From a virus: 64,000 nucleotides of DNA. Every line of letters begins with the position of its first letter. Position 1 is the first letter of the stretch. Shown here in pieces: positions 5,492 to 52,723 of the stretch. Location: the IMG/VR virus record IMGVR_UViG_3300037869_000009, positions 10,094 to 74,093 of that record; one strand, 5' to 3'. The position numbers were made by a program, and so were the translations under genes. The notes below the pieces were generated by a model. It had not been told where the DNA came from, did no database searches, and saw only the letters and a list, made by a program, of their open reading frames with translations.

Positions 5492-5520
5492 CTTCCACAC
5501 TGCAACCTGGGTGGCTTACG

Positions 5521-5823: not shown

Positions 5824-5863
5824 TTGGGTATTCCTCTTGAAGTCTGAAGGGCCCGGTGGCGCT

Positions 5864-6205: not shown

Positions 6206-6244
6206 GTTGATCTCCGTCCTGTGAACGCTGCGTTGCCGGTGCGA

Positions 6245-7198: not shown

Positions 7199-7293
7199 GT
7201 CTTCAATCTCCCTGAACTCACGGTGTGAGTATTCAACCTAACCGCCCCGCTCCACTTCGGGGCCTTTTGAACCGGGAACGTGGTGCAGTTACG

Positions 7294-8148: not shown

Positions 8149-8216
8149 TGGATGATCACTCCCTTAGTTTTGAAAGGCTACGTGAGCACGATCCGCAGTC
8201 GCAAGGATGCAACGCG

Positions 8217-9017
8217 TCATGGTACTTCAGGTTTCTGGAATGGCTTCGCGTTGCGGTACGCAGCACCGCCGATGCTGAATCCGGTGAACTCACCTTTTTT
8301 GACCTGGTCCCAAAGGTCATCGTCAGCAACACGGATTGCCAACAGCCAGGTCCCTTTGGTGATGGTTTCTTCGCCCAACGTGAAGCCCACAGGTGCCAAA
8401 TAGCTTTCAAGAATCTTCAGTTTCCCGGTAACGATCTCGCTGTGCTGCTTTCCCAGGGCCTGGTAATGCTCCATGAAGCTGTGCGCTGCGGCCCGAATGG
8501 ACTCCGCGTTGTAAAAGTCCTTCTGGGAATCAACGGTGTCGGGTTCCAGCACCGCTCCCAACACGAACCGTTCTTCATCAGTTTTGAACAACTTCACATG
8601 GGTCAACGCTTTGTTGACCATTGCCTGTTCCGCCACGCTGACCGGCGCTTCCGGTTCCTGTGTTGGCTTCGCACGCTTCGAGATCACGCGGACGTTGGGA
8701 CCGTCCGCCAACGCTTCGGAAGTAGCGAAAACACCGGGGCCCAGGGGTGACACAAAGATTGTGGTGGCTGTATCCAGTGCAGCTTCAAGGGCGCCAATGC
8801 TGGGCAGTTCCAACACCCAGGCACCCTTTGCAATGCGCTGAATCTCGGCCATGTCAGGACCGTCCGAGTCCGACCACAGACTGGCGGGAAAGACGTAGGC
8901 AGTTTGACCTGACTCCCCCAGGGCCTTGGCTGCCACGATGACAGCCAAGTCTTCAGCTGATTCATCCACCGCGTGATCCCCTTCAGGCGTCACTGTCGCG
9001 ACCCCACTCCGGATCAA
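8217..9017 (-). CDS. XkdF-like prohead serine protease
   Basis: ERFVLGAVLEPDTVDSQKDF...IRAAAHSFM...QH...ILESYLAP...KGTWLLAIRV.DDDLWDQVKKGEFTGFSIGG. Confidence 0.85.
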   Translation of the reverse strand: MIRSGVATVTPEGDHAVDESAEDLAVIVAAKALGESGQTAYVFPASLWSDSDGPDMAEIQRIAKGAWVLELPSIGALEAALDTATTIFVSPLGPGVFATSEALADGPNVRVISKRAKPTQEPEAPVSVAEQAMVNKALTHVKLFKTDEERFVLGAVLEPDTVDSQKDFYNAESIRAAAHSFMEHYQALGKQHSEIVTGKLKILESYLAPVGFTLGEETITKGTWLLAIRVADDDLWDQVKKGEFTGFSIGGAAYRNAKPFQKPEVP

Positions 9018-9738
9018 CGGATTTGAAACGTCGGGTCTTTGGATCGTAGACGGCGCTATTCATGTCCATGGGCCACGCCGTCTTTTCAACAGTGGTTGGC
9101 GCAGACTTCGTGTCCGCCTTGGCTGTTGCGGTGACCGTGGTCTGTTCGCCTTCCAGCACGCGTTCCAGCTGCGCTTGCTGTGCGAGCAACCCGATCAAGC
9201 AACCGATTTTGTTGCGAACTTCCCAGGTGTCATCAGCACCTGGTTCAATCTTGATCGTCAAAACGCGGCTGATTTCGGCCAGCTTTTCAGCAGCCGGACC
9301 CTTCTGAATCGCTTCGCGGATGCCCTTGGCCAGGTCATGTTCCTGACCCTCCACCATCTTCACGAGCTCCGCCGTAGTATCGATGACCTGTTTCGAAATC
9401 GAATCCAGGTTCTGGATCGGCACTTCACGAACTTCCACTTCACGCTGCCAGGGGTCATTGGCAATCACCACCGGGATCACAATCGAAGTCGCTGTGTCTT
9501 CGAACAACTGCACCTTCAACACTTCGGCTGCAGCCTTCTTCAAGCTTTCCGGTAGGCCGTCCCCACGACTGATCATGGTCAGTAGGTCTTTGACCGTGAC
9601 TTGCTTGACCTGGGGTTGGTCAGCAGCCTGTTCACCAGCGAGCGCATCTGCGTCCGCTTTGAGCACCCGAAGACGTTCCTGAAGCGCTTGATCCATGAAT
9701 CGGGACCCTCCGAAATGGAGTAGACCCGATCCGTTCAT
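8983..9738 (-). CDS. Hypothetical scaffold-like head protein
   Basis: 251-aa helical acidic ORF between MuF and protease; C-terminal WPMDMN motif shared with the 7294-8148 product; start may be 9696. Confidence 0.6.
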   Translation of the reverse strand: MNGSGLLHFGGSRFMDQALQERLRVLKADADALAGEQAADQPQVKQVTVKDLLTMISRGDGLPESLKKAAAEVLKVQLFEDTATSIVIPVVIANDPWQREVEVREVPIQNLDSISKQVIDTTAELVKMVEGQEHDLAKGIREAIQKGPAAEKLAEISRVLTIKIEPGADDTWEVRNKIGCLIGLLAQQAQLERVLEGEQTTVTATAKADTKSAPTTVEKTAWPMDMNSAVYDPKTRRFKSVDPEWGRDSDA

Positions 9739-9746
9739 AGCGTCGC

Positions 9747-9772
9747 AAGTTGTCGCCCCGGGGCGACAACTT
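9747..9772. repeat. Dispersed palindrome copy 1 (AAGTTGTCGCCCCGGGGCGACAACTT)
   Basis: 26-bp perfect palindrome read directly. Confidence 0.95.
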
Positions 9773-9874
9773 AGATTAGGGTATGTGGGACGGGTGCCCC
9801 CGGGCTAGACGGCATGGAGAACAAAATCGTGCCCACCCTTGATAGCAGGGTTCATTGAATACAGGGGCACCCGT

Positions 9875-9898: not shown

Positions 9899-10200
9899 CA
9901 CGGTGTCCAGACGCGTGGACCCGGGGGTGGCTCCCAAACCTGCCCATTCAGTTCAGCCCGCAATGCCTTCGGGAGTGCGTCCAGAATCCTTGACACTGAC
10001 CAGCCATGACCGGCGCGCAGTTCCCGGAACCAGCGTTCCAAGATTTTGAAACGACGCCGTGTCTCCTGTGCTGTCATTTGGCAAGGGTGTTCACGGTATG
10101 ACTGCGCAATGGTGGCGTGAAATGCAGCAAACACACGCGCATGTTTTGCGGTGTCTACCTGTCCCCGGGTCAACATCGCTTCCAACAGTTCGCATGCCAT
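9898..10200 (-). CDS. Hypothetical protein
   Basis: 100-aa ORF, operon context. Confidence 0.65.
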   Translation of the reverse strand: MACELLEAMLTRGQVDTAKHARVFAAFHATIAQSYREHPCQMTAQETRRRFKILERWFRELRAGHGWSVSRILDALPKALRAELNGQVWEPPPGPRVWTP

Positions 10201-10210
10201 AGGTCCGAGT

Positions 10211-11263
10211 TTAGACCGGTAAAACGGTGCTACGGCAATGACCGTGCAAGGGTGGGAAAATGGCTCCGATACCAGCCAACTGTTTGGGACTCTTTCCCTT
10301 GCTGAACTCGCCTACGTCATCGGCTTTGCCGTAACCACTTCGTGTCACAGTTGCGATCCGAACATTCTTTTCACCCTGTTTCACATACAGAATCCGATTC
10401 CCGTTCTGGTCCGTTCCTTCGTTGACCCAAGGACTGGCCTGGGTGATTTCTTCGGGGTCCTTCAGACTCGTGATCTTGTTGATGTGATTCATCGCGGTTT
10501 CAGTTGTAAACACTGTCCCGTGATAGAACCGGCATACATTCGAAGTCACTTCATCCAACACTGCCTGAAACACCCATTCCGTGATCCCGGCATCGTCAAA
10601 GGCCCCGAACTGCGAAAACGTCCGCGCATGGGTACTGAAGCTGTTAGCCACGACTCGCCAATAACTGGGTCCCCTGGACACACTGTTCCCCAGTGACGTC
10701 TGCAGCGACTTTCCGATCTCGATCGGCCCCTGTCCGGTCTGAAGTCCACGTTCCACAATCCCGCGGGCCCTGCCCGAGTGCCAATCGGCCCGGTTCCCAA
10801 GTTCATCGCGAACATAGTTCGTGGTGATTTGCCGAACCAACTTTTCAACCTTTCGATCGCGGGAAGACAGCTCCGCCCCGATCTCCATCTTGAAAGTGCG
10901 CTTCATGCTGGCCCGGGTAGCCTTGGCAAGCTTGGGCCCCTCGGACTCCAAGATGGCTGCGAACTTCGGGGGCACCGTGGCGATCTTCGCCTTCAGGATC
11001 CGGTTTGCTGCTTTCAGAACCTTGTCCACCTGACCATCCGTCATGCGGTCCCAGCTGACGTCAAGAGTATCCAGCGCAGCCTTCACGGCCCTGGCTTCGT
11101 CCCCGGCCACCGCGGCATTGATCCTGCGGGACAAGCGCTCCGTGATGACTACGAAGTCCGCGGCCTTCAAGGGGTCCAGCGCTTTGGTGATGTCTACCCG
11201 TAGCATCTGGGACGCAAGCTGTTCCGCAGCCAGGGCCCCAGACTGGTAGATCGCAACACTCAC
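10211..11263 (-). CDS. Head morphogenesis protein (SPP1 gp7 / MuF-like)
   Basis: FQAVLDEVTSNVCRFYHG and terminal FPPLHGHCRSTVLPV motifs; follows portal. Confidence 0.9.
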   Translation of the reverse strand: MSVAIYQSGALAAEQLASQMLRVDITKALDPLKAADFVVITERLSRRINAAVAGDEARAVKAALDTLDVSWDRMTDGQVDKVLKAANRILKAKIATVPPKFAAILESEGPKLAKATRASMKRTFKMEIGAELSSRDRKVEKLVRQITTNYVRDELGNRADWHSGRARGIVERGLQTGQGPIEIGKSLQTSLGNSVSRGPSYWRVVANSFSTHARTFSQFGAFDDAGITEWVFQAVLDEVTSNVCRFYHGTVFTTETAMNHINKITSLKDPEEITQASPWVNEGTDQNGNRILYVKQGEKNVRIATVTRSGYGKADDVGEFSKGKSPKQLAGIGAIFPPLHGHCRSTVLPV

Positions 11264-13257
11264 GTGGGCTGGACCATGGTGGCGAACACGTCCGCAGGAA
11301 TCTTGATCACTTCCGGTTCATCATCGTTATCATCCACCACAGTCACGGGTGGCTTCGCTGCCAGACGCGCTTCGCGCTCCCGTAGTTCGCAGCGTTTCGC
11401 TGCCACCGATTCTTCGATCTCCACGGCTTCGAGCTGGTCACGCAACTTCATCAACCGTGCTGCGTTCATCTTCAGCCGGCGCTTCGCGGTTGCAACGGCC
11501 CCCAGCGGTTCACCGATGCCTGAAGCTTCACCGGCTGTCGGGATATCGTTGTCATCGGTGACGTCCAACGGGATACCCGCAATCGTCATTGTGATGGGCT
11601 GTTCGGTCCAGTCCGCATCGATGCGGGGAAGCTCTGTGTGAAAGACACGGTCCGCAGCAATCACGCGCCCATCCTTCGGAACCAGGATCCCCACGCTGCT
11701 TAGCTTCGTAAGCGCTTCGGCCATCTCCAAGGGATCTGTGATGCGTGGACCATCGGAAACCAGCTTCCAATATTTGATCCCGAGTGCTGGAAGAATCATG
11801 CGATTCAGCGTGAAATCAGTGCTTAGTCGTTCGGGTCCAAAGACCTGCGTTTCTGCGAACTCCAGTGCGGCCTGTGCACTGGCTCGGTTGAAGTCACGGA
11901 TGTCACCACGAAGCATGCGGGGCAGCCGAAACGACATGCCTACTTTATCGATGTTGCGTTCATCGTAGTTTTGAAACAGCGCGTCTTTCATGTGCGCGTC
12001 TGTCAATGGTTTGATCTCGATCCTACAACGCCCCGAGTTTTCCAAGCCCATCATCGCTTGGATCGGTGGGGAGTCCGCTTCCAGGATCAGGATCTTGTGG
12101 AAGTTGCGCTTCCCCTTGATCTCACCTTCGATGAAGGACCGGATAGTCTTCACGGAATCGGCCTGCAGCCGTCCACCACTGACCGTGATCACCAGCGGTG
12201 GAATGGACTTATTTTCGAAGTAAGTGAAATTCACTTCTTCGGCATGGCGGGAGCCCAGCACTGAAATCAGATTCCCGATCCAACGCGGTACGCCATACGC
12301 GCTAGTCGCGCTGTGGATACGGAAGTGAATCACTTCGTTTGCTGCTACCGCCTTGGGTTCCTTCTTCTGTAGGCCCTTCAAATCGTCATAAGCTAGGCCG
12401 GTGCGTGCGCTGATGACCCTGGGGTCCCCAAACTCTTTGAACCACACAGGCTTCTGACCAGCCACGATCTGGATGAAGCGCCGGAACGTGCGATACACGG
12501 TCTGGGGCATGAATGTGATGGGGCCGCGCTGCACTACCTGCTGAACCGGGATGCGATCCACATCTTGTTCAACAAGGCGCACGGTATGGGCTGCCATCCC
12601 AACGAACTGCTGGGGCTTGCCAGCTGCGTTGCGCACCACCTCCCAGTAGCCGTTCCCGGTTGTCTCCATGTCGGCCCGGGTCCGATGGCGCAGCGTGACA
12701 AAACTGATGTCCGGGCATGCATACTCAAAAAACGATTCGGCCCGCGCGCGTTCGATACGCATGTCCCGCTTCAGCCGTTCGATCTCTGAATCCACTTCGG
12801 CTTCCGTGGGTTCATTGTCCTTGGCTTCGGGATCTCCTTCGCCTGACCGCAACAGCCGATCCAGAAACATTGCATCGCGAACCTTGTCCCGCGCGTCATC
12901 GGCATCCAGGTTGATCGTGGGTTCAAAGTGATGACCAAACCCATCAATGTTCGTGGCGTACGAATCGATATTTTGACGCAAGCTGTTCGAGTGCTCTAGC
13001 AGCTCGTAAAGGGTCTGAGGATCGAACGGCGGGGTCAGGTACCCATCCACCATTGCGAAGCCGGACGCTGCACTGGTGATGATGTTGGCGGGGTCATTGC
13101 TGGCACTGCTGGAAAGCGATGCAGAGTCTTTCCGGACCTGGGACTTACCTACCAGCTCGAAGCGATCGCCACCGCCGATGATGGTTGCTCGCACACGTTC
13201 AGTCAGATCATCGGTGGCATTCATCGCCACCGATGCTGCTTTCTCGCGCGCACCCAT
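11260..13257 (-). CDS. Portal protein (PBSX-like)
   Basis: 665 aa; D.ETTGNGYWEVVRN..GKP, ANEVIHFR, YGVPRWIG, ..F..KSIPPL.I.VSGG, SFRLPRML.G...DFNRASA motifs. Confidence 0.9.
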   Translation of the reverse strand: MGAREKAASVAMNATDDLTERVRATIIGGGDRFELVGKSQVRKDSASLSSSASNDPANIITSAASGFAMVDGYLTPPFDPQTLYELLEHSNSLRQNIDSYATNIDGFGHHFEPTINLDADDARDKVRDAMFLDRLLRSGEGDPEAKDNEPTEAEVDSEIERLKRDMRIERARAESFFEYACPDISFVTLRHRTRADMETTGNGYWEVVRNAAGKPQQFVGMAAHTVRLVEQDVDRIPVQQVVQRGPITFMPQTVYRTFRRFIQIVAGQKPVWFKEFGDPRVISARTGLAYDDLKGLQKKEPKAVAANEVIHFRIHSATSAYGVPRWIGNLISVLGSRHAEEVNFTYFENKSIPPLVITVSGGRLQADSVKTIRSFIEGEIKGKRNFHKILILEADSPPIQAMMGLENSGRCRIEIKPLTDAHMKDALFQNYDERNIDKVGMSFRLPRMLRGDIRDFNRASAQAALEFAETQVFGPERLSTDFTLNRMILPALGIKYWKLVSDGPRITDPLEMAEALTKLSSVGILVPKDGRVIAADRVFHTELPRIDADWTEQPITMTIAGIPLDVTDDNDIPTAGEASGIGEPLGAVATAKRRLKMNAARLMKLRDQLEAVEIEESVAAKRCELREREARLAAKPPVTVVDDNDDEPEVIKIPADVFATMVQPT

Positions 13258-13550
13258 CAGAATGACCTGGAGTCGAAGCCACCAAACCAGGCTTCAGGGA
13301 CTCCACTGGTGAACGCAGTGGTTCGGATACGCAGCTTTTTGCAAGCGTGCGGAACGGTGTAGAAGCCCGGCGCAGTAATGCCGCTGTGAACAGCTTGGTA
13401 ACGCGCCCCGTCCAGCGATATTTCAACGTCCAGCGTGGCGACGAAGGTCCCCATGATCTGGATCGTCTTCTCGACGTAGCCAGCAACTTCCTTCGGGGCC
13501 CCGGCTGCAACGGATGCGGGGACTGTCAAGGCTTTCAGTTCTGTCTTCAT
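13257..13550 (-). CDS. Hypothetical protein
   Basis: 97-aa ORF abutting the portal start. Confidence 0.65.
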   Translation of the reverse strand: MKTELKALTVPASVAAGAPKEVAGYVEKTIQIMGTFVATLDVEISLDGARYQAVHSGITAPGFYTVPHACKKLRIRTTAFTSGVPEAWFGGFDSRSF

Positions 13551-13722
13551 GTGACCCCTTTGGCTCCCGGCAATGTAACTCGGGTGCCAAACGGTGGGCC
13601 ACGGCGGCGCTGTGCGTACTCTTACAGCACTGCCAGTTGAAGCGTCCTTCCCCCCAGTTGACGCTACGCTGTCTTATCCGGGGCGCTCCATCTGGAACAG
13701 TGCAGATGGAGCGCCTTCCCCT

Positions 13723-21684: not shown

Positions 21685-22077
21685 ATGAGCATTGAATCAG
21701 AACGGCTGTTGACTGAAGCCGATATCGCGAAGCTGTGCAGTGTGGGCCGAAGCAAAGCCTACCAGATCATGAAGTCGATTCCGGATCACGTAGTCATCGG
21801 CACGGGTCCACGTCCAATGCTGCGGGTGCCGATGTGGGGTTTTCAACGTTGGACTGAAGCAGGCGGAGACAAGTCAGCATGCGAAAACTACTCAGAGTCA
21901 AAGGCAGCCCATATTGGTATTGCGAAGGACGAAACTGGAACGGAGATCCATACCGCCGCACTACCAAACAAACGGATGAAACCAAGGCCCGCGAAGTTGC
22001 CGAACGAATCGCAGCCGAAGAATCTCTTCCCACGCCTGATTACTACTCGCTCTATGACGCGTGCGCAGCGCTCCTAG
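21685..22077 (+). CDS. Excisionase-like HTH protein
   Basis: LLTEADIAKLCSVGRSKAYQIM...LRVP..GF.RW, directly upstream of and overlapping the integrase. Confidence 0.75.
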   Translation: MSIESERLLTEADIAKLCSVGRSKAYQIMKSIPDHVVIGTGPRPMLRVPMWGFQRWTEAGGDKSACENYSESKAAHIGIAKDETGTEIHTAALPNKRMKPRPAKLPNESQPKNLFPRLITTRSMTRAQRS

Positions 22078-22991
22078 TGGACAAGCAAGAATGTCGCGCA
22101 AGTGCAGCATCGATCCAGATTGTCACTGACAAGCTGACCCGAGTCATGCAGCACTTCGGGCCACAACGTGACACCCAAACACTTACGGACGATGACATCA
22201 AAGAATACATCATTGCCCGTCGTAAACACGTCTACAGGGGAAGGCCCATCAGCGATGCCACGATCCGGAAAGAGATCGGAAGGTTGTTCGAAGCGCTGCG
22301 ATTCGCGAAGCGAAAGAAGAAGTGGGCCGGTGAAATCGAGCAACTGCGAATGCCAAGGATGTTGGCACCGGATCAACCGAAGAAGCGTTATCTTCGCGAA
22401 GCGGAATACATAGCGATTCTTGAGCACATCCCGATCAAGCGCCGGGACTACATCGTGATGTGGTGCCACACCGGGGCGCGTTACAGTGAGCTGTTTCGCA
22501 TCGAAGCACAGCACATCGACGAATCGGATCCCAGCAAACCCCGTGTGTACTTGACCGGACGAAAGGGCCGGGTGGAATACAAAGAACGTTGGGTCCCTTT
22601 GTCCGCTGATGCGCTCGAAATCGTGACTGAACGTGCAAAACGCTTCCCCACAGGCCCACTGTTCCCAGACCTGTGGCACAACACGCACGTTCGGAAAGCG
22701 CTGGCCAAAGCTTGTCAACGCGTTGGTGTTCCGCCCTGTAGTCCCAACGATCTGCGCCGCACGTTCGCAACCTGGTATGGGCGCGTTGGGAAGAAGGAAG
22801 ACTTGAAAGCGATGATGGGCCACAGCCCATCATCGAAGCTGGTGGATCACGTCTATCGCCAGCTCCATGCGGACACCGGTTATGAACAGATTCAAGGGTT
22901 CCCGGCACGGCCCCCAATGGGACCACCGCCCTATCAGTACCGGCGCAGAAATCCGATCAATCCGGGGGACGGCGCTTCATTGGGCGCATGA
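21879..22991 (+). CDS. int: Tyrosine integrase
   Basis: HTGARYSE (R), GRKGR (K), NDLRRTFATW (x-x-x-R), MMGHS (H), HVY (Y); N-terminal arm-binding-like region. Confidence 0.9.
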   Translation: MRKLLRVKGSPYWYCEGRNWNGDPYRRTTKQTDETKAREVAERIAAEESLPTPDYYSLYDACAALLVDKQECRASAASIQIVTDKLTRVMQHFGPQRDTQTLTDDDIKEYIIARRKHVYRGRPISDATIRKEIGRLFEALRFAKRKKKWAGEIEQLRMPRMLAPDQPKKRYLREAEYIAILEHIPIKRRDYIVMWCHTGARYSELFRIEAQHIDESDPSKPRVYLTGRKGRVEYKERWVPLSADALEIVTERAKRFPTGPLFPDLWHNTHVRKALAKACQRVGVPPCSPNDLRRTFATWYGRVGKKEDLKAMMGHSPSSKLVDHVYRQLHADTGYEQIQGFPARPPMGPPPYQYRRRNPINPGDGASLGA

Positions 22992-29104: not shown

Positions 29105-29152
29105 TGGCGACCCCAGGCGGATTTGAACCGCCGTTTACGGCGTGAGAGACCG
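29105..29152 (-). other. 3' half of a tRNA-Glu(CTC)-like sequence; candidate attP core
   Basis: Minus strand CGGT-CTCTCAC-GCCG...GGCGG-TTCAAAT-CCGCC-TGGGGTCG-CCA: anticodon loop, perfect T-arm, acceptor 3' side with CCA; no matching 5' acceptor strand or D-arm. Confidence 0.7.
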
Positions 29153-38996: not shown

Positions 38997-39020
38997 AGTT
39001 GTCGCCCCGGGGCGACAACT
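38997..39020. repeat. Dispersed palindrome copy 6
   Basis: 24-bp perfect palindrome 2 nt after a stop codon. Confidence 0.95.
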
Positions 39021-39022
39021 GG

Positions 39023-39232
39023 TCAACGCGTGCGCTTCGCTCGCTCGCTCCACAGATACTGTGCCTTCCGAGCATGGGTGATCATCATCAACGCAAACAG
39101 AGCTAGTACCCACAAGGGTTCATGCTTCGCTGCCAGCAGCGCGGTGGCCCCGCTATAGGCCAGCGCGAAGAAGACGTGGAATCCGGGGACGTTATCCAGC
39201 TTGCAGTCACTTGGACCCATCAGTTGAACCAT
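39023..39232 (-). CDS. Small membrane protein
   Basis: Two hydrophobic segments. Confidence 0.5.
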   Translation of the reverse strand: MVQLMGPSDCKLDNVPGFHVFFALAYSGATALLAAKHEPLWVLALFALMMITHARKAQYLWSERAKRTR

Positions 39233-39844
39233 TCAAGCAACCACTGGGGGCCGATGCATATATGGCATTGGGTACAAAGGCGCGATCGGAAGTAGCGCAG
39301 CAACAAGCGCTGTGGCTACCTGCAAGGGCCCCGTGGTCATCGTATTGAGACGACGTCCCACGGTATCGATCTGCACTTCAGGCGGACTGCACAAGTCACG
39401 AAGCCAGGACTCAAACGCTGGCAGTGACCAGCGATCCGGTAACCACTGCGCCCCGAACACATCCCGTGGCACATGCATGGCGTTCCGATGATATGCGATG
39501 CGTTCATCCAGTTCTTCGTCTAACTCGAAACCCAGGAAAAATAGCGTCCAAATCCCCTTGGCCCTGCTGCGGGCCCGGGCCCGCGCATCCACAACTGTGG
39601 CAGCTCTACGAACCAACTTCGGACCAGCCCATTGCGCAGTCTTCGGAAACAAGCGGGCCATGAAATCACCACCACCACGTTCATCTAGAATATCGGTGTC
39701 CCACCATTTCAGACGTTCGGGGTCAGCTGATTTCTCACCAGCCCATGCCACCATGAACTGCAGTGCGAGTATGGAATCAAGCTCGCCAGCATCATGAACC
39801 ACGTTCCGCTGAACTGGCGTGGTCAACCAATCAGTCTTTGGCAT
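39233..39844 (-). CDS. brxE: BrxE-family (BREX type 6-like) protein
   Basis: LDSILALQFMVAWAGE...RLKWW.TD..DE.GG.D...RL.P.T..WA...AA..VD....LF.LGFELDE.LDER matches my recollection of myxobacterial BREX-6 BrxE; no other brx genes nearby. Confidence 0.7.
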   Translation of the reverse strand: MPKTDWLTTPVQRNVVHDAGELDSILALQFMVAWAGEKSADPERLKWWDTDILDERGGGDFMARLFPKTAQWAGPKLVRRAATVVDARARARSRAKGIWTLFFLGFELDEELDERIAYHRNAMHVPRDVFGAQWLPDRWSLPAFESWLRDLCSPPEVQIDTVGRRLNTMTTGPLQVATALVAALLPIAPLYPMPYMHRPPVVA

Positions 39845-40310
39845 GTGCCCTCTTCAGCCGGCGCTTCTGTTCCGCCAAGTAGATTTCAAAAGCCCTGTCT
39901 TTGTTGTGGGCGAAAAAGTGGGCTCGGGCCGCATCACTTCCATAGGTGTTGGAAGCGCCATGTATTGCCACTAGATCCAGATCAAACTTGAACGCGCTGC
40001 CTTCATCAAGTGCTATCTCCCACCACATAGCAAAGTTGCGAAGCTGTTCTTCATACGTTGGAAACCGCGCCACGAATACTTCGGTGTGTTCCGAACTTGG
40101 AACATCAGCACTACGTACGAAGTGCAACAGAATCGGGAACTCACCATCACACCTATATCTGTCATCGCGTCCGCCATCATCCATCCAGACATCGTGCGCC
40201 GGCCCATCAGGGCCGAACTCGGACAACACGCGGTGGGCCGCATAGACATACGCCTTCGACGGTTCCTCATGCGACTTCGGAACCGGTAAGTTGCGGGCCT
40301 TGACCCTCAT
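39831..40310 (-). CDS. Hypothetical protein
   Basis: 159 aa, operon context. Confidence 0.6.
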   Translation of the reverse strand: MRVKARNLPVPKSHEEPSKAYVYAAHRVLSEFGPDGPAHDVWMDDGGRDDRYRCDGEFPILLHFVRSADVPSSEHTEVFVARFPTYEEQLRNFAMWWEIALDEGSAFKFDLDLVAIHGASNTYGSDAARAHFFAHNKDRAFEIYLAEQKRRLKRAHAKD

Positions 40311-40876
40311 GCTGCCTTCTTCACAGCCACAACCTTGGCCCGGGACCGTTCATAGGCACGGCGCCACGTAGCCTTTGCACGTGCATAGCGTTTGGGATCG
40401 GCTTTGATGCGCTGATGCCTGGCCTTTGCAGTAGCCTTACTACGCGCAATGCTTTTCGCCCTATACACGGGATCGCGATGGTAGCGAGCAAAGCTGTAGG
40501 CCCGAACATAGGCCCGCTTGCGCTCCATTGCATCCGCACTCATGCGGGACCGATACACCTTAGCCTTAGCAAGCACGTCCTGTTTGTGGCGCTGGTAGTA
40601 ACACCGATCATACTCCCGTCGTCGCGCGACCCATGCAGGATCACAACGCTTCCCCGCGTAGTAGATACGTCGATCACATCGGGCCGCGCCGTTGAGCTCA
40701 CGTGCTTCCTGAACCCTACCCCGTAACACGCTGTGACGGCATTCCAAGGCGCAAACAATATCAGCGATGCGCCAGCTCAACGTTGCAAACTCTTCATTGA
40801 GTTCTTCACGAAGATTCGTCCAGCTCATTGGAACCCCCACTAGATCCCCGCCTGGTAGTAATATTCGATACGCCAC
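40307..40876 (-). CDS. Arg/Lys/Tyr-rich helical repeat protein (HNH N-terminal-like, no nuclease)
   Basis: RREYDRCYYQRHKQDVLAKAKVYR-type repeats. Confidence 0.55.
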   Translation of the reverse strand: MAYRILLPGGDLVGVPMSWTNLREELNEEFATLSWRIADIVCALECRHSVLRGRVQEARELNGAARCDRRIYYAGKRCDPAWVARRREYDRCYYQRHKQDVLAKAKVYRSRMSADAMERKRAYVRAYSFARYHRDPVYRAKSIARSKATAKARHQRIKADPKRYARAKATWRRAYERSRAKVVAVKKAA

Positions 40877-41436
40877 TCATGGCCACAGCCACCGAAGCCG
40901 GCATCATCATCAATGCAGCGGTGCAGGTAGTGAGCACGCGCTGCCCAGATGCCTTGATCTACGTGGCGCTTCCCACACTTCGGGCAGTTCAGATGACAGA
41001 ACGTGATGGTTTCAAACCCATACGCTATCGCGTTATCGGTGCAATGCACGGTGCCACGGGACCCCAGTAGCGGGAAGCTGAACACCTGGGTGACGTGGTC
41101 ATGGTGTTGAAGCTCCCGCAAGTGGTCCAGCATGGCAATGTTACGCTTAGGTCCAGCGACAACGCGCCCATACGTAGACCACTCCGCACGGAACGGAATC
41201 ACTTCGTGTCCCAGTTCCTTTGCCAACCTAGCCGCAATGGTATCGGCACCCCGGGCAGCGCCATGAATCACGATGGACCCCGGTGGTAGCGCTGCAAGGG
41301 GGCGACGAATCGCAGCTTCATCGGTCCAGTCCCGAGACCCAGTCACCACTACCGCGGGCACCTGCAGCGGTAGTGGTAGCTGAATCCACTTCGACACAAA
41401 AGGCTTCCGTTTACGTGCTGCGCTCACGCTATGCAC
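40840..41436 (-). CDS. YspA/DUF2493-type SLOG protein with C-terminal Zn ribbon
   Basis: VVVTGSRDW...VIHGAARGADTIA...W..YG..AGP.RN..ML; then CPKCG..H...H..HRC...CGHEW. Confidence 0.8.
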   Translation of the reverse strand: MHSVSAARKRKPFVSKWIQLPLPLQVPAVVVTGSRDWTDEAAIRRPLAALPPGSIVIHGAARGADTIAARLAKELGHEVIPFRAEWSTYGRVVAGPKRNIAMLDHLRELQHHDHVTQVFSFPLLGSRGTVHCTDNAIAYGFETITFCHLNCPKCGKRHVDQGIWAARAHYLHRCIDDDAGFGGCGHEWRIEYYYQAGI

Positions 41437-43560: not shown

Positions 43561-46257
43561 TCAGCCAAGAACTTGGACCCCGATACGGGCAGCGGTACGG
43601 CCCCCAATCAAGAGGTGGTGAAGCTTGCGGCCCACCTCCCGTGCAATCCACGAAGCCATCAGACGATCGCCTGTATGGGCTTCAGGAGTGTAGTCCAACA
43701 TTTCAGCGTGCCACTCTTCGAAGTCTTCGCAGACGTTCTGTTCCACGATACCCCGGAACACCGTGGGCATGATCCAGCGGGCCGCTTCCATCTCCGCTGC
43801 CATGGACGCCACCCCGAATCTGGGGTCCGCCTTCTGAGCCCCCGTGGTGAATGGGATCACGGGCACCACCGCTGTCATCGCTTCGCGTGCCAACTCCACG
43901 ATGTGCTGCTGGACACCATTGTTCTCGACAGCCACGAACCCCTTGAAACGAACGCCGTGGCTAACGACGCGTTCCAGCAACTCCGTGGCGCCCCACCTCC
44001 CGGACTCCAGCCACAACGGTTGACGGGTCCCATCGGGGTGAATGAACAACGTGAAGATCGACGTGTTGGCACCGGTCACCCTGCGGGAGCCGATGTCCAC
44101 AGCACTGATGACCACGCATCGTTCCGGTACGAACTCGAGTTCAGCAACGGGACCCACCCCTTTGCCACGTGCCTTGCATGACGTAATGAATGCAGGCTTG
44201 AAGATGAGATCACCTTCATCCCTGGGTTCGCACATAAAAACACGTGCGAACTCCAGTGAACCCGATACTTTTTCGAACTCTTTGATCCGCGATTCGGGCC
44301 AACGCTGTGGCCACGCAGACTTCATCACAACACGCTTGTTGCCCTGCGCATCCGTGATCTCACGCGCCAACCTGATGGGGCGCTTGATCATGTGCCAACC
44401 GCGTTCCTTTGTGAGCTCGTTTGCGAGATCCCGGGGGTGCCATGCGTTGGTGCAAAACGCGACCATGGCATTGGTCGTGGTGCGAGGTAACACCGTGGTG
44501 CGAAACCACTTCGATGCCTTACGGCGCTGGACTTCGGTGTCCGTGATCTCTCCGTTCAAGAGATCGTCCACGATCAAGAGATCGACACGTGCACCAACCA
44601 CGTTGCTACTATTGTAACCAACCGCCGTAATCGATGCTTCTTTGGCAAAAGTGAGACGCTGGACTGTAATGCTAACGTCCTGCCAGACGTCGCCACGCCT
44701 GAGATCCGGGAACACGTGGTGCAGTTCTTCAGACGTCTCTATGTACTTTTTGATAGCACTAAGAGTGTTGCGTGCCTTCTCCTGGCTATGGTTCAGGATC
44801 ATCACGCGTAGATTGGGATTGCGTCCGAGCTCCCACAGCACACGCCCGATCGCCAGCTGATTAGTGTTGTGCGTAACGGTGTAGTGGCGCCCCGCCAGAT
44901 AGGTATGATCGTCGGAGTCCACCGCGATGCACCGTGCTGGTTCGGTAGGAATCCTGCGGATGGCAGCGACAGCCTTCCAGCGCTGCTTCCCACCAACACG
45001 ATCCGCATCACCCAGCTTCTGGCGATCCAACTTGCGCCGTAGCTTGAAGACAGGTTCACGCGCCGTGAACGTGATGCGGTACCGCTTCCCCACCACGCGC
45101 CCATCCAACACAGCGTCCGATGCCACCATCGAAGCCTTGAACCCCAATGACCTGATCAACTCCAACGCGCCGGTGGCCAGCTGTTCATTGCAGACACAGA
45201 GTTCAACCCTGGAACTGCCACCCGATGACCCATTGCTGATGGAACCATCGGTGTCCAGCAGGCCGGCTAGCAGCTCCCTACGGTCAGCCTCAGCAGCCCG
45301 CAGGTATTGGGCCGGGATGCATTTGCGACCCTTCCCGAGCACACCCAGCAAGCGCAACCTGCGCCTGGTGCGGCCCCACTGATCACCCAGCGTTCCCTGT
45401 CTGATGTGACTGCGCCCACTGTCGGCATGGTCTGGCCTACCACCGACCAACGAAATGCAACGATCCCAGATGAAGCGATCCGATTCCGCGAACACCAACG
45501 CTGCGCTATTGGAAATACCATCACCCAACCAGGCGCCCAACACATAGGGATGAATCGGCAACCGGTGCCGGGCATGCTGCACCGGTCCACACACCGGAAC
45601 GCGCCACCGAAACCGATCGTCACTTTCCCGTAACCCGGTATCCAGCATGTGCTGAGTAGTCACAATCCGAGCCCCGGCCCTACCTCCACCGCGTGAACTC
45701 GACAGCTTGGCGAGCCACTGGTGTTCGGCATCAGCAAGCAACGTGGCGCCGTCTTCAAAGACCACTTCAAACATGTCGCCCAACGCCACCGGTGATGCAT
45801 AGGTGACATTACAGGGGAACCCATCGCCACCGAAGACCCTGTCACCAGCGCGCAGGGCCCCCATGGTCCGCCACCCATCTGGTGTCGGGATCTCGGTATG
45901 CACAGCCAGACGCTTCCCGGACTCCGGATGCGCAAGCACCACAATCTTACGATGCTTCGTCAGCGCTGCCTGGATCTCGACATGAAACGGCAACTGTTCG
46001 ATGGGTTTCCGTGTCTCTTCGTCGCGCAACACGTATTCACAAAACGCGTTGACGTTTTCACGACAACGCTGGAACACCAGGGCCCTGGCTTCAAGGGCCC
46101 TGGCCTGCAACTCCACGGGGTCCAGGTCAGTTGAGATTGCTTCGAGTGCTCCCGATCCCAGGTGCGAGTTCTGCAGGATCGTCGGGTTCAGGTGGTTCTG
46201 ATTCGCTGCTGGAATCTGAAAGTGCTCTGACTTCAACCGGCCCGCTTTGACTCTCAT
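43561..46257 (-). CDS. terL: Terminase large subunit with intein
   Basis: Walker A AHPESGK|T split by intein; Walker B LLIVDD; motif III FCTNAWHP.DL; nuclease SAVD.G, VENNG, HTGD..MA; ATG 46257 preferred. Confidence 0.9.
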   Translation of the reverse strand: MRVKAGRLKSEHFQIPAANQNHLNPTILQNSHLGSGALEAISTDLDPVELQARALEARALVFQRCRENVNAFCEYVLRDEETRKPIEQLPFHVEIQAALTKHRKIVVLAHPESGKRLAVHTEIPTPDGWRTMGALRAGDRVFGGDGFPCNVTYASPVALGDMFEVVFEDGATLLADAEHQWLAKLSSSRGGGRAGARIVTTQHMLDTGLRESDDRFRWRVPVCGPVQHARHRLPIHPYVLGAWLGDGISNSAALVFAESDRFIWDRCISLVGGRPDHADSGRSHIRQGTLGDQWGRTRRRLRLLGVLGKGRKCIPAQYLRAAEADRRELLAGLLDTDGSISNGSSGGSSRVELCVCNEQLATGALELIRSLGFKASMVASDAVLDGRVVGKRYRITFTAREPVFKLRRKLDRQKLGDADRVGGKQRWKAVAAIRRIPTEPARCIAVDSDDHTYLAGRHYTVTHNTNQLAIGRVLWELGRNPNLRVMILNHSQEKARNTLSAIKKYIETSEELHHVFPDLRRGDVWQDVSITVQRLTFAKEASITAVGYNSSNVVGARVDLLIVDDLLNGEITDTEVQRRKASKWFRTTVLPRTTTNAMVAFCTNAWHPRDLANELTKERGWHMIKRPIRLAREITDAQGNKRVVMKSAWPQRWPESRIKEFEKVSGSLEFARVFMCEPRDEGDLIFKPAFITSCKARGKGVGPVAELEFVPERCVVISAVDIGSRRVTGANTSIFTLFIHPDGTRQPLWLESGRWGATELLERVVSHGVRFKGFVAVENNGVQQHIVELAREAMTAVVPVIPFTTGAQKADPRFGVASMAAEMEAARWIMPTVFRGIVEQNVCEDFEEWHAEMLDYTPEAHTGDRLMASWIAREVGRKLHHLLIGGRTAARIGVQVLG
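44866..45912 (-). mobile_element. Intein (349 aa) with LAGLIDADG homing endonuclease, class-3 signature
   Basis: Starts R-LAVHTEIPTPDGW, block B ADAEHQW, PYVLGAWLGDG, ELLAGLLDTDGS, block F RCIAVDS.DH.YLAG, ends VTHN|T. Confidence 0.9.
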
Positions 46258-47086
46258 CTGACACACCCCATCGACGCAGCATGCCAACACCCAACTGAAG
46301 CCACTTCGCAGCGTGCTCCGGTGACAGCGCCCCACCCGTTGCGCCTTCCACATCGTCATCGCCCACGGGGTGCCCCATGGCCAAGCGTTCGGCCTGCAGC
46401 GCCATCTTGCTGGCTTCGGTGCCAAGCTTCGTCAGCACCGCCAGCTTCTGCATGAAGCTGATTCCTTCCTTCAGGGTCAGGTCCGTGGACTCGTCTTCCA
46501 GCAACTTGCGAAGCCTGGGCATCAGGGCCTTTGCCCCGGCCAGCAGTTCGCCAGTGACGTCCGCCAACTCCGTAGCGTTCCGACGTGCCCGCTTGATAAG
46601 CTTGCCCTCTTCGGATCGTGTAAGCGCTGCATCGCGCTGCGATGCCTTACGCGTCTTTTCGCGCTCCACCATCAACGCCATGTTGCGTTGCGTACTGGCT
46701 TCAGGTGTCGCGAGTTCAGCCGCTGTAGGAATCGGTGGTTCTGCCACGACTTCGGCACCACGTACTGCAGCTTCTTCAGCTTCGGCCCGCATCTTCCGGG
46801 CCAGCACCTTGTCCGCTTCCAGGAGTTCGGACACCGGGGGGCGCCCCTGTCGTGGCCAACCCTTGTTCCATGCGATGCTGGCCCGGTTCCTGGGGCACCC
46901 CATCAAGGCAGCGACTTTGACGATCTGACCGGGATGCTTGCGGTAGGTTTCGATCCAGCGTTCCCACTCCGCATCACTGACCCGCTTTGGGATACCTGCG
47001 GTGGGTGACCGGAAGCCCCCACGCAACGGCTTCGGTTTTTCTTCGTCCACGGACCCGAGTTTGCGACGCGTTGCAGGCCCTGTCAC
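46127..47086 (-). CDS. Probable terminase small subunit
   Basis: N-terminal HTH-like region (W..G.W) and helical body directly upstream of terL. Confidence 0.6.
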   Translation of the reverse strand: MTGPATRRKLGSVDEEKPKPLRGGFRSPTAGIPKRVSDAEWERWIETYRKHPGQIVKVAALMGCPRNRASIAWNKGWPRQGRPPVSELLEADKVLARKMRAEAEEAAVRGAEVVAEPPIPTAAELATPEASTQRNMALMVEREKTRKASQRDAALTRSEEGKLIKRARRNATELADVTGELLAGAKALMPRLRKLLEDESTDLTLKEGISFMQKLAVLTKLGTEASKMALQAERLAMGHPVGDDDVEGATGGALSPEHAAKWLQLGVGMLRRWGVSDESQSGPVEVRALSDSSSESEPPEPDDPAELAPGIGSTRSNLN

Positions 47087-48488: not shown

Positions 48489-48857
48489 TCAAGGGTACGT
48501 CATAGGCGCCGCTAACCCGTGCTGCAGCAACTCTTCATTCAGGGAAATGCCTTGCCCATCAGGCGCCCACACTTCGACAAGCCATCGCCCGTATTTTTCT
48601 TTGAGCTTGGCCTTGTAGCTGCGCAACAACATCTGGCCGGCGCGGGCATCAAACCAGCGCTGCACAAATGCAGTGGCAGCCTGGCCCTGCAACCGCATCG
48701 CTCCAACCACTTCGGGAGTATTGACCCCAAGCAACCGGACCCGTGTAACGGCCCGCACTTCGAATCCAAGATCAATATCAAGATCGAAGGTGTCACCATC
48801 AACAACCCTGCGCAGGCTTGCGCGGTAGTCATAGGCTGGACCATGGGGCGTTGTCAT
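48489..48857 (-). CDS. Thermonuclease (SNase-like)
   Basis: RVVDGDT.D..IDLGF...RVRL.GVNTPE...KYGRWL. Confidence 0.85.
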   Translation of the reverse strand: MTTPHGPAYDYRASLRRVVDGDTFDLDIDLGFEVRAVTRVRLLGVNTPEVVGAMRLQGQAATAFVQRWFDARAGQMLLRSYKAKLKEKYGRWLVEVWAPDGQGISLNEELLQHGLAAPMTYP

Positions 48858-48863
48858 TGAATA

Positions 48864-49514
48864 TCACCTTTTGCGAAGTGGAAACCTGACTGCATCGGAC
48901 TTCAATCGGATCACGTTGTATCCCATGAGGTGTTCCAAAGACGCACCGAAGTCATGAGGATCAAAGGTCCGATAGTCCGCAGGTTCGGTGCCGATGCGCA
49001 ACACCAGGTGAAGCACTGCCAACAGTTCCCGATTCGGAATCGATGGAACCGCCGTCATGGGCTGTCCGCTACAGCGCCCTTCCAGGAAGGGGTAGCGGTC
49101 CGGTGCAAAGAAGTTGCCCCCGTAGCCCGGGAGCTGCACCCCGTTACCCTCCGCACCCCCATGCAAGGCACGCCACAGGTGGACCAGGTACCAATACCCA
49201 TCGGACCCACCCCCAGGGCAATCGAGCTCCAATCGACGGGCCAGCGTATGCAGTCCGAAGCGCAACCGGTAACCCCGGTTCCGAACCGGGAACAGGTCCC
49301 GGGCTTCCGCCAACGCCACGAAGACGATGCGAAGCAGTAGCGTGCGCAACCCATCCGTGACTTCGCCACTGGCCACAGCAGCATCCAGCGCGGTGCGCCC
49401 ATCGCGATCGGCTGCTTCATCAAAGCTGCGGACCAGCAGTTCCAAGGCTTCCAACAACTGACCTTGCCAACGGCGCATCGTGGCGTGGTCCCAGCCGCTG
49501 TCAGGCGCGTTCAT
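48864..49514 (-). CDS. Isolated N-terminal domain of an Eco57I/type IIG- or DISARM DrmMI-like methylase (no catalytic motifs)
   Basis: GL.TLLLRIVF...AEAR.L.P, L..L.R..HGG, LPGYGG.FF.PDRYPFLEGR, Y..FD...FG..LE.L; stops before any SAM-binding or NPPY motif. Confidence 0.65.
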   Translation of the reverse strand: MNAPDSGWDHATMRRWQGQLLEALELLVRSFDEAADRDGRTALDAAVASGEVTDGLRTLLLRIVFVALAEARDLFPVRNRGYRLRFGLHTLARRLELDCPGGGSDGYWYLVHLWRALHGGAEGNGVQLPGYGGNFFAPDRYPFLEGRCSGQPMTAVPSIPNRELLAVLHLVLRIGTEPADYRTFDPHDFGASLEHLMGYNVIRLKSDAVRFPLRKR

Positions 49515-50316
49515 CACGGACCCGTTTGTATCGACAGCCCCGGCACGATAACACCTTGCCAGCAGCAAGGTGCCCAGCAGCGATCAACCGTTCGCGCCCA
49601 CACCTGCAGCGGCAACGGTAACCGTGACGGGGCTTCTTTCCGAACCGCACTGCGCAAACCACGATCCAGAACCCAACCTGTGTACCGGTGGCGATGTTGA
49701 TCTGTTTGCGGGGTCCGATCCCTCTTGCGCGCCGCTCCCGCATTCTCTGCACCCGACGTGCTTCTACAGGGGTAGTCCCAAACTTGGCAGCCAATCGCTG
49801 TTCGGCCTGGGTGCGGCCAAACTTCAATCTACATGCGTCGGTGCAATGCACCGCGGCCCGCGTGCGAACCGGGCAGAACAACACTTCGCAGTTACGACAG
49901 CAACAAACCCAGCGATCAGAATCGCGCTCTGCCCGCTTCAACCGTGCATGTTGCCGTTGCGCAGAAGCACGGGCCTTGTGGGGATTGGATGCGCGCCAAT
50001 GCAACGCGTACTGCCTGAGCCATTCCCTACGATTCGCTAGACGTTCTTCAAGGACGATCTCCACATCGTGCTGACGATGGCTGTATTCCCTGAACTCTTC
50101 GTGGATCTCCGCACGAAGGTCACTCCAGCGCGTCCGCTGACTTCGGCCAACACGAGACACGTTCCGGAAGTCATCAACAACTTCGTCACGTACCGCGCCC
50201 CCGGGGCTGGGTGACGGTGGTAGTAGTACCCAACGCGCCTTGGGCCCGTAAACAAGTGCGCCATCTACCCAATGCCAGCCAGCGTCCCATGACGCACCTG
50301 CATGGGGTGCCGTCAT
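49501..50316 (-). CDS. Cys-rich putative DNA-binding protein (homing-endonuclease-type accessory domains)
   Basis: C..C...F.P......C...CR and G..VG.W.V......C.C.CG......L..G...SC.GC; no HNH core. Confidence 0.55.
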   Translation of the reverse strand: MTAPHAGASWDAGWHWVDGALVYGPKARWVLLPPSPSPGGAVRDEVVDDFRNVSRVGRSQRTRWSDLRAEIHEEFREYSHRQHDVEIVLEERLANRREWLRQYALHWRASNPHKARASAQRQHARLKRAERDSDRWVCCCRNCEVLFCPVRTRAAVHCTDACRLKFGRTQAEQRLAAKFGTTPVEARRVQRMRERRARGIGPRKQINIATGTQVGFWIVVCAVRFGKKPRHGYRCRCRCGRERLIAAGHLAAGKVLSCRGCRYKRVRDERA

Positions 50317-51149: not shown

Positions 51150-51499
51150 CGCTTGGCCTTGGCCTTCTTCGCGGTAAGCTTCGTACGCGTACGCGCCGCG
51201 CCGCGCTTCGACGCAACACCGTTCCCAGCCACTAGATAGCGCAGCTTCGACGCTTCACGCATCGATGTAACGTCGTGGGTCAATCGCGACACATCATGAA
51301 TCAGCTTTGCATTCTCGGACTCCAGGAACGCGACGCGTGCCACCATCACGTTCCACTCATCCACCACCGATACGCAGACCTTCCTTTGTACATCGGTCAT
51401 GTTGATAAGGTGATCCCGCATGAGATCGATCATGGGCCCCCCAGGTCTGTAATACACTTCGGTATCCAACTTCGGTGCCGTAAAAACGATTTGGTTCAT
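51146..51499 (-). CDS. Coiled-coil hypothetical protein
   Basis: ATG 51499, ATGA-coupled. Confidence 0.55.
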   Translation of the reverse strand: MNQIVFTAPKLDTEVYYRPGGPMIDLMRDHLINMTDVQRKVCVSVVDEWNVMVARVAFLESENAKLIHDVSRLTHDVTSMREASKLRYLVAGNGVASKRGAARTRTKLTAKKAKAKR

Positions 51500-52074
51500 G
51501 GTGATGTCCCTTCGAGTTCGTGCCCGTGTTGCAACCATCCCGACCTGACCCGACGCGCGAACAACTCGACATAGGGCCCACCAGGTAGCAGACGTTCCGC
51601 AATCTCATAGATGCGGTCAGGCTTCGAGCTGTGTTCCTGCACCGGTGCCTGGAACGATGACCTAACGCTGCGGTCCTGGACCTGGACGCGTCCCCTGGTC
51701 CCAATCAGACACACTTCGTGGCTGGCCCTAACGTAATGCCCCATTCCGATGTGTTGCTTCCCATGCTTCGTCAACTTCTCCCACACCACTTCGGACTTCA
51801 GCGTGAAGCCCCAGAACCGCATGACATCTAGCGCTTCCTGTTGCATCGCAGCAACGCGCCACAGCATCAACATGCAATCGTCAGCCAGTGGTGGCAGCGG
51901 GAACCGGACGATCTGATCCACCGTCATGCACGGATAGTGCTTCTCTGCGCCGCGTCCGGGACCCTGGACCTTGTCACTGAACTTCCACGGTGGGTCAGCC
52001 AGCAACACTTTCGCTGGGGACTGAGCGGGCCCGGCGCCGATCACGCTTGGCACGCTTGGCAGCGCGCTTAGCAT
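51496..52074 (-). CDS. MT-A70-family methyltransferase
   Basis: LLADPPW...HY.CMT...I...P....DC.L.LW...WGF..KS..VW.K...G.GHY.R..HE.CLIG.RG. Confidence 0.9.
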   Translation of the reverse strand: MLSALPSVPSVIGAGPAQSPAKVLLADPPWKFSDKVQGPGRGAEKHYPCMTVDQIVRFPLPPLADDCMLMLWRVAAMQQEALDVMRFWGFTLKSEVVWEKLTKHGKQHIGMGHYVRASHEVCLIGTRGRVQVQDRSVRSSFQAPVQEHSSKPDRIYEIAERLLPGGPYVELFARRVRSGWLQHGHELEGTSP

Positions 52075-52723
52075 CGCTGCGTTCCCGTTGCTCCCGTTCG
52101 GCTTCGTCTGCAAGCTCCCGGCTACGACCCTCATAGATCACTTCCACCTTTCCAGCGATGGCCTTGCGCTGCTGCGCGGTGCCGTGCCCGTATTTGCAGA
52201 GCCCCACCATGGTGCAGGCGAACGCATCGCTTTCGTTGTCATCCGCAGCATCAAAGGCCCAGCGCTTCCACACCTCACGCATCATCGTGTTCTTCTCGGA
52301 ATGCCCTTGATCCGTAGCGAATACCTTCAACGTGTTGGGCGGGACATTGAGCATTACGAACCGCATCACGTGGCGCAACTTGAAGAGTTCCAACTTCAAC
52401 GCCCCGTGAGCCATCCCAAGTGAATGGGCCTGGTTCGACGCGAACCCGGCGCCTTCGAACACCCAGACTTCAGGGGCCAACGCACGGCCCCGTAACCACT
52501 CCACGAAGTGCTGTAACCCTGCCACCATCTCTTCCAGGCGCAGCAGCCCGGTGGTCTTCGGCTTCAACACGGTGTGATACAAAACCTGCGGTGCCAAGTC
52601 TTTGGGATCCGAGCTAGTACCGCATACCGCTACAAGTCCGGTGCCTGTGAGCGAGACATCGATCCCAGCCACCACCAGTGCCGTGGTCCGTGGCGCTTCA
52701 AGCGTTTGCGCCTTGACCCTCAC
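51995..52723 (-). CDS. RuvC-like Holliday junction resolvase
   Basis: VAGIDVSLTGTG, VFEG, P.TLK.FAT..G...K, DDNE.DAF. Confidence 0.85.
   Translation of the reverse strand: MRVKAQTLEAPRTTALVVAGIDVSLTGTGLVAVCGTSSDPKDLAPQVLYHTVLKPKTTGLLRLEEMVAGLQHFVEWLRGRALAPEVWVFEGAGFASNQAHSLGMAHGALKLELFKLRHVMRFVMLNVPPNTLKVFATDQGHSEKNTMMREVWKRWAFDAADDNESDAFACTMVGLCKYGHGTAQQRKAIAGKVEVIYEGRSRELADEAEREQRERSDAKRAAKRAKRDRRRARSVPSESVAG

Follow-up and report, generated by a model that had tools for sequence, protein, structure and literature searches.

An intact gene for a homologue of BrxE, a protein of BREX type 6 systems, lies on the minus strand of a phage genome sampled from a soil metagenome. The DNA analysed here (the window) is a stretch of 64,000 nt that corresponds to bases 10094-74093 of the IMG/VR record IMGVR_UViG_3300037869_000009, which is 107,034 bp in full and 98% complete according to CheckV. 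The gene and its immediate surroundings in window coordinates are as follows:

38997..39020, no strand: perfect 24-bp GC-rich palindrome directly after the 69-aa ORF, with no T-tract
39023..39232, minus strand: 69-aa ORF with two hydrophobic segments and no Pfam match
39233..39844, minus strand: orphan BrxE homologue, intact, 203 aa, with an ATG start (NF033448, 167 bits; PADLOC, 2e-38)
39831..40310, minus strand: 159-aa ORFan directly upstream of BrxE, with no Pfam or PADLOC match
40307..40876, minus strand: 189-aa basic ORF further upstream of BrxE, overlapping its neighbour by 4 nt
40840-41436, minus strand: YAcAr/SLOG-family protein of 198 aa (PF10686, 6.3e-14), three genes upstream of BrxE

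The gene block to which BrxE belongs runs leftward, is tightly coupled and has BrxE close to its end; it is located downstream of the terminase and adjoins a convergent block of small genes. The 3' end of the 159-aa ORFan overlaps the BrxE start by 14 nt, and the two reading frames are therefore probably translationally coupled; the 4-nt overlap follows further upstream, and on the downstream side the ATG of the 69-aa ORF, the last gene of the block, abuts the BrxE stop codon (TGAATG). A Shine-Dalgarno-like sequence, AGAGGG, precedes the BrxE ATG. Scans for consensus promoters and terminators around the block returned signals at background level only. The palindrome at 38997-39020 is probably where the transcription unit ends and could be either a terminator hairpin or a protein-binding site. 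The 159-aa ORFan has no homologue but itself among 5.8 billion proteins, and the SLOG domains represented three genes upstream of BrxE bind nucleotide-derived ligands. Two candidate assignments in this neighbourhood were rejected: the two ORFs upstream of BrxE as divergent versions of BrxA (hhalign probability 0.3), and a tblastn match between the C-terminus of PglX and an upstream ORF (E 0.04), which amounts to a 31-residue charged helix.

Identity, predicted fold and orphan status

The phage ORF is a genuine member of the BrxE family by sequence, by its residues and by its predicted fold. It scores 167.1 bits against the NCBIfam equivalog model NF033448 (BREX_6_BrxE), covering model positions 4-181 of 182 and exceeding the curated cutoff of 80 bits; the broader model NF033447 (BrxE_fam) gives 116 bits and the PADLOC BrxE model an E value of 2e-38. 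Matches were absent from the local Pfam copy and from PHROGs, and precomputed annotation assigns the phage protein and all its relatives to PF26412 (BrxE). A preliminary description of the locus had proposed a BrxE-like protein from short motifs in the translation. The reading frame is real, the motifs AWAGE, RLKWW, GGGD and LFFLGFELDEE are all present in its 203 residues, and the profile searches bear the assignment out. Every column that is invariant in an alignment of 47 sequences is retained, and judged by the family motifs AWAGE, RLGWW.TD, LGF..DE and the C-terminal YP.P the phage copy belongs with the rest. Operon-borne copies have 57 columns with conservation of 80% or more, and the phage copy keeps 51 of them, which lies within the cellular range (49-57, median 54.5). 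At two conserved positions its changes are non-conservative (G46K, which falls in the RLGWW motif, and D96K), and the N-terminus is longer than in relatives. With a pI of 6.43 and a net charge of -1 (family median pI 6.06) the protein is near neutral, which rules out an acidic DNA mimic of the Ocr type.

AlphaFold2, supplied with the family alignment, predicts a mostly helical protein with high confidence (pLDDT 92.3, pTM 0.88). Among the AFDB clusters, the significant matches of this model are exclusively BrxE-family members or unnamed look-alikes (TM 0.58-0.76, E 3e-7 to 6e-4). Foldseek found no match in the PDB, a sequence-profile search of the PDB returned chance-level DOT1L rows only, and a feature search of the ESM Atlas gave no usable match. 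The exhaustive aligner VIA-align ranks residues 69-395 of Salmonella PglX (8c45_A) first, a weak match (Z 4.7, rmsd 4.2, 159 residues aligned), followed by HsdM-type chains with Z scores of 3.8, 3.0, 2.7 and 2.4, below the reliability range; a shape search of the ESM Atlas puts an N6_Mtase/Eco57I cluster first at a TM of 0.35, which is again below that range. PglX carries an N-terminal helical bundle ahead of its methyltransferase core (PMC11341690), and the corresponding region of gamma-class N6-adenine methyltransferases (PglX 8c45; HsdM 2okc, 3ufb and 3khk) is all helical, as BrxE is mostly predicted to be. A profile comparison of BrxE with the N-terminus of BREX-6 PglX found no relation (hhalign probability 0.1), and the resemblance to PglX and HsdM may serve as a lead only, with no homology claimed. 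The predicted complex of a Polyangiaceae BrxA (from L024) with the phage BrxE scored 0.01 against a mark of 0.32, a result that is uninformative either way.

BrxE is the only BREX gene of this phage. The preliminary description had noted no other in 64 kb, and this extends to the entire 107,034-bp record: profile searches found neither PglZ (PF08665) nor MmeI_Mtase/PglX (PF20473), neither BrxB (PF08747) nor the BrxC/PglY N-terminal family (PF19557), nor BrxA (PF08849), the last in a search run without a positive control. A tblastn search of the record with all six proteins from the complete BREX-6 operon of L001 matched BrxE alone, at 46% identity. A complete BREX operon elsewhere in the phage, which would have spoken against the orphan reading, is thus absent from a record that is nearly complete. 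Since no other BREX gene is present, the phage cannot form a BREX system on its own. The equivalog model presupposes a gene that opens a BREX operon and has brxA next after it, and the phage gene stands outside that context; with neither PglZ/PglX nor BrxA/BrxB/BrxC present, the locus likewise falls outside BREX type 6. Because the operon context is absent, the phage protein is to be regarded as a family member by sequence, with no functional equivalence implied.

The phage and its host

The phage encodes a portal, a large terminase, a family B DNA polymerase (PolB), a UvsX-like recombinase and SbcC, in addition to an N6/N4 DNA methyltransferase, an MT-A70 methyltransferase and a tyrosine integrase; it is probably a temperate tailed phage, with a GC content of 58.2%. 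The following features of the window bear on its lifestyle and its dealings with host defences:

21879-22991, plus strand: tyrosine integrase (PF00589, 1.1e-11)
about 29105-29152: 3' half of a tRNA ending in CCA, about 6 kb from the integrase
43561-46425, minus strand: large terminase, 954 aa
47424-48446, minus strand: orphan DNA methyltransferase, N6_N4_Mtase (8.7e-53)
48489-48857, minus strand: staphylococcal-nuclease-like protein
48864-49568, minus strand: stand-alone DrmMI/type IIG piece, 234 aa (PADLOC)
51496-52134, minus strand: orphan DNA methyltransferase, MT-A70 (6.7e-27)

Both orphan methyltransferases and the nuclease-like protein are located between the terminase and SbcC, and from their annotations they plausibly make up an anti-restriction cluster. 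The terminase itself contains an internal insert at residues 381-457 that matches Pfam Hom_end, and its PHROG matches fall on both sides of this insert, an arrangement consistent with an intein.

Many relatives of the portal protein occur on contigs of 100-118 kb, and the closest long relative shares 62% portal identity. A single-protein scan of viral contigs with TerL found no relatives, and a megablast of 12 kb against GenBank phages gave a single 89-bp match at chance level. Only two portal relatives carry a name, being binned to Myxococcales and Deltaproteobacteria MAGs, and of 101 Myxococcota genomes sampled one contains a close portal relative, a number that does not allow phyla to be contrasted. 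The 3' half of the tRNA was used as a further probe: its 48 nt found no match in 301 Myxococcota genomes, its 34-nt core none in 121 genomes, and the tRNA-half probes none in 101 Acidobacteriota genomes or in five other BrxE-bearing genomes. Because no genome tried gave a positive, the probe is uninformative on the host. The preliminary description had seen in BrxE a hint of a Myxococcota host; that hint persists in the ancestry of the gene and in the two MAG-binned portal relatives, but receives no support from the 58% GC content of the phage, about ten points below that of the donor clade, or from the tRNA probes.

Ancestry and distribution of BrxE

BrxE proteins form a small family: a set of 1.84 billion proteins contains 304 representative clusters at E <=0.001. 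The 80 loci found in species genomes comprise 49 from Myxococcota (24 of them named Polyangiaceae), eight from Cyanobacteriota, seven from Pseudomonadota and four from Acidobacteriota, in keeping with the preliminary statement that BrxE is common in myxobacteria. At about 77 of these 80 loci BrxE is followed directly by BrxA, BrxB and BrxC, and by PglX and PglZ too where the contig allows. The median spacing between the BrxE stop and the BrxA start is about 15 nt; at 42 of 74 loci it does not exceed 20 nt, and often the two genes overlap by 4 nt. In cells, BrxE is an obligate member of the BREX operon. What it does there is still called unknown in the literature (bioRxiv 10.1101/2025.10.09.681413), and the preliminary characterization of a poorly understood subunit holds.

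Several cellular and metagenomic loci depart from the standard arrangement or add to it. In L035, a Polyangiaceae MAG, the BREX-6 locus at 10028-13587 has BrxC right after BrxE, with BrxA and BrxB undetectable, a variant that could reveal which partners BrxE needs. Directly upstream of the BREX-6 operon of L001, at 5513-9810, lie an OLD-family ATPase/TOPRIM protein and a UvrD-type helicase; this Gabija-like pair and the operon form a defence island. Two metagenomic BrxE homologues of 323 aa, P0034 and P0011, carry a SAP motif N-terminal to the BrxE domain, with scores of 26.4 and 20.4 bits, of which one lies above the Pfam cutoff of 23.9. This fusion, possibly of the Rosetta-stone kind, offers a modest hint that DNA is where BrxE acts.

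A maximum-likelihood tree of 75 BrxE proteins places the phage copy inside a clade of 24 sequences of the Polyangiaceae/Sorangium type (SH-aLRT 96); on this tree the donor clade is Polyangiaceae, and thus myxobacterial. The best identity of any relative to the phage protein is <=49%, and its terminal branch, at 1.15 substitutions per site against a median of 0.21, is about five-fold longer. Composition likewise sets the gene apart from its cellular kin: its GC of 56.4% and GC3 of 55.9% match the phage, whereas Polyangiaceae BrxE genes have 65-75% GC and 76-93% GC3. The idea of a captured gene therefore stands as to direction, given the Polyangiaceae ancestry, but not as a recent event, given the low identity, the long branch and the fully ameliorated GC. 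Since the gene has been ameliorated and has travelled far along its own branch, yet has kept 51 of 57 conserved columns, it looks old and selectively maintained, neither a fresh capture nor a decaying remnant. The nearest metagenomic homologues, P0084 and P0085, sit on contigs of 1.2-1.4 kb, and their neighbourhoods are uninformative.

Two further orphan copies were found. A pattern scan of IMG/VR recovered one more viral BrxE, at 49% identity, on an 84-kb record (L006); the region around it encodes a terminase, an HNH-like protein, two DNA methyltransferases, a helicase and SbcD, contains no other BREX gene, and shares no sequence with the window phage besides BrxE. The other copy, 86% identical to that of L006, lies on a 5.8-kb contig binned to a Polyangiaceae MAG (L007), without BrxA and next to an XRE repressor and a large serine recombinase. 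L006 (9105-10547) and L007 (3207-4658) share a 1,455-bp module at 87% nucleotide identity in otherwise unrelated flanks; it consists of the end of an HNH-endonuclease-like gene and the orphan BrxE, and may be a mobile cassette.

How the three orphan copies are related bears on how often such a gene arose. The free tree places the L006/L007 pair deeper in a Sorangium-like subclade, apart from the window copy. A single clade of all three is not rejected by the AU test (p 0.78), and the tree constrained to contain it is better by 10.3 log-likelihood units; independent capture by the two phages is accordingly not claimed. The window copy shares six otherwise rare residues with the L006/L007 pair; among 21 clade members the median is three. 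That one orphan lineage has moved between unrelated mobile backbones appears no less likely than separate captures. The upstream genes may also hint, weakly, at a shared origin of the cassette: those at all three loci (window 40307-40876, L007:3180-4037, L006:8940-9926) start with M[ST]W[TR]NLREEL, in the window as MSWTNLREEL; the pairwise matches (E 6e-5 and 3e-4) are weak and extend over only 16-21 residues.

Among the closer relatives of the window phage the gene is patchy. BrxE is missing from all 21 portal-related viral records scanned, of which 12 are at least 90% complete; the L006 record, which served as positive control, scored 168.6 bits. Two complete relatives conserve TerL, SbcC and a few other genes, and none of the small genes at about 31-43.5 kb, the neighbours of BrxE included. 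The phage BrxE thus behaves as an accessory gene, as anti-defence accessory genes do.

Possible roles of a stand-alone BrxE

Because BrxE in cells is so closely tied to BREX-6, a BREX-related role for the phage protein is the parsimonious starting point. Its observed identity, orphan status, intactness, ancestry and accessory behaviour, taken together with the operon linkage of its cellular relatives, make action on a host BREX-6 system the most economical inference. We tentatively favour counter-defence by subunit mimicry, to which we would give a little less than an even chance; the broader anti-BREX reading of the preliminary description is plausible from the same context and is held with equal reserve. 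The phage would keep a stand-alone BrxE descended from a Polyangiaceae-type host gene and produce it during infection or from the prophage; the protein would displace the host BrxE in the BREX complex, or bind up the partner of BrxE, and, having diverged (e.g. G46K and D96K), would not sustain exclusion of the phage. Binding to a BREX-6 component, the identity of that component and an inhibitory effect are the inferred parts of this scheme. The conserved core, kept as in cellular copies, fits a fully functional BrxE as well as a poisoned one. The argument assumes that the host carries BREX-6, which is its main gap, the phage lying with its 58% GC below the 65-72% of the donor clade.

A more specific version of counter-defence we consider possible but closer to one chance in three than to an even one: unrelated phages and mobile elements of Polyangiaceae-like hosts would pass among themselves a lineage of orphan BrxE genes that is dedicated to anti-BREX-6 action and would poison or hijack the complex from within. 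Recurrence is thin, amounting to three orphan copies for which a single origin is compatible with the AU test.

The phage protein shares with the BREX-6 BrxE of Sorangium spp. and Polyangiaceae MAGs the family, the length class, the invariant residues and the predicted fold (TM 0.76). However, the cellular protein heads an operon, whereas the phage copy stands alone, with its low identity, long branch and phage-like GC. The known anti-BREX factors are Ocr of phage T7 (PMC7261183, PMC11341690), the SAM lyase of phage T3 (bioRxiv 10.1101/2023.02.27.530186) and OrbA of phage ICP1 (bioRxiv 10.1101/2020.12.16.423150). The phage BrxE would share with all three the accessory role of escaping BREX, as proposed here, and orbA, like the phage BrxE, is variably present among related phages. 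Yet the three are unrelated to it in sequence and none derives from a BREX subunit, and BrxE is neither a DNA mimic (pI 6.4) nor a SAM-degrading enzyme. The nearest conceptual precedent, by analogy, would be the antitoxin mimic that ICP1 directs against DarTG, a phage-encoded mimic of a host defence component (PMC11481870). The logic is the same, in that a phage homologue of one defence component neutralises the system to which that component belongs; the mimicked antitoxin, however, has a defined neutralising role, and for BrxE neutralisation is putative.

Four other explanations account for parts of the evidence. The one that survives best, though we regard it as unlikely, holds that the BrxE fold has a general activity, for instance the binding of a small ligand or of some feature in DNA or the nucleoid, that serves phage replication or regulation independently of BREX. 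The biochemical function of BrxE being unknown (bioRxiv 10.1101/2025.10.09.681413), such an activity is conceivable, and the SAP DNA-tethering motif fused to BrxE in two homologue clusters points to a generic DNA-associated role; the long separate history in a phage background and neighbours that are ORFans without a defence link would be natural on this account. Against it, BrxE in cells hardly ever occurs apart from a BREX operon, and a family of this size that is absent from the 21 related phages is a poor fit to a phage housekeeping role.

Lambda Ral is a precedent for enhanced host methylation. In a similar fashion, a functional phage BrxE could steer the host BREX-6 towards methylating phage DNA and so mark the phage as self. 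We rate this hijack of methylation somewhat below the BREX-independent role. A core conserved to the cellular level is what a protein working within the complex would be expected to have, the phage already invests in DNA methylation with its two orphan methyltransferases, and two shape searches weakly rank N-terminal regions of N6-adenine methyltransferases first. Those fold matches nevertheless lie below the reliability range of the tools, the profile comparison with PglX offers them no backing, and the host would already supply a BrxE of its own.

Lysogenic conversion is more doubtful still. Here a prophage-borne BrxE would tune the host BREX, so that the phage's own unmethylated DNA is tolerated at integration or the exclusion of competitors is strengthened. 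The tyrosine integrase, the XRE repressor and large serine recombinase beside the L007 copy, and the location of the gene at the end of an operon next to the convergent block of small genes are compatible with this; its position inside a coupled block downstream of the terminase is unlike that of an isolated moron with its own promoter and terminator. The possibility that BrxE is a functionless passenger, the hitch-hiking cargo of a mobile cassette with decay yet to come, is very improbable: mobility alone could spread BrxE, as the L006/L007 module with its HNH-endonuclease-like gene illustrates, but the window copy is intact, has a ribosome-binding site and has kept its conserved core through complete GC amelioration and 1.15 substitutions per site, by which point neutral sequence would have decayed.

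From the definition of BREX type 6 onwards BrxE has been without a known function, and the exclusion of phage DNA by BREX has likewise yet to be explained. A phage that keeps this single subunit under selection makes possible a direct test of BrxE as a control point of BREX. If an orphan BrxE lineage does serve as a dedicated anti-BREX-6 gene, no earlier anti-defence protein would have come from a structural subunit of BREX, and the phage protein would be a natural tool for finding the partner and the role of BrxE. Should it inhibit or redirect BREX, it would represent a new class of counter-defence, in which a subunit of a methylation-based system is mimicked, beside Ocr, SAM lyase and OrbA.

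A second lone piece of a methylation-based defence protein is encoded about 9 kb from BrxE. The PADLOC models for DrmMI (the DISARM methyltransferase) and for type IIG enzymes match this 234-aa ORF over profile positions ~245-446 only (E 1.5e-30); the catalytic part is absent, and Pfam gives no match. An hhalign comparison of the BrxE profile with the fragment (48864-49568) found no relation between the two. Together with the two methyltransferases the fragment fits an anti-defence repertoire, which proves nothing about BrxE. Other orphan pieces of defence systems in phages, this DrmMI fragment among them, merit the same attention.
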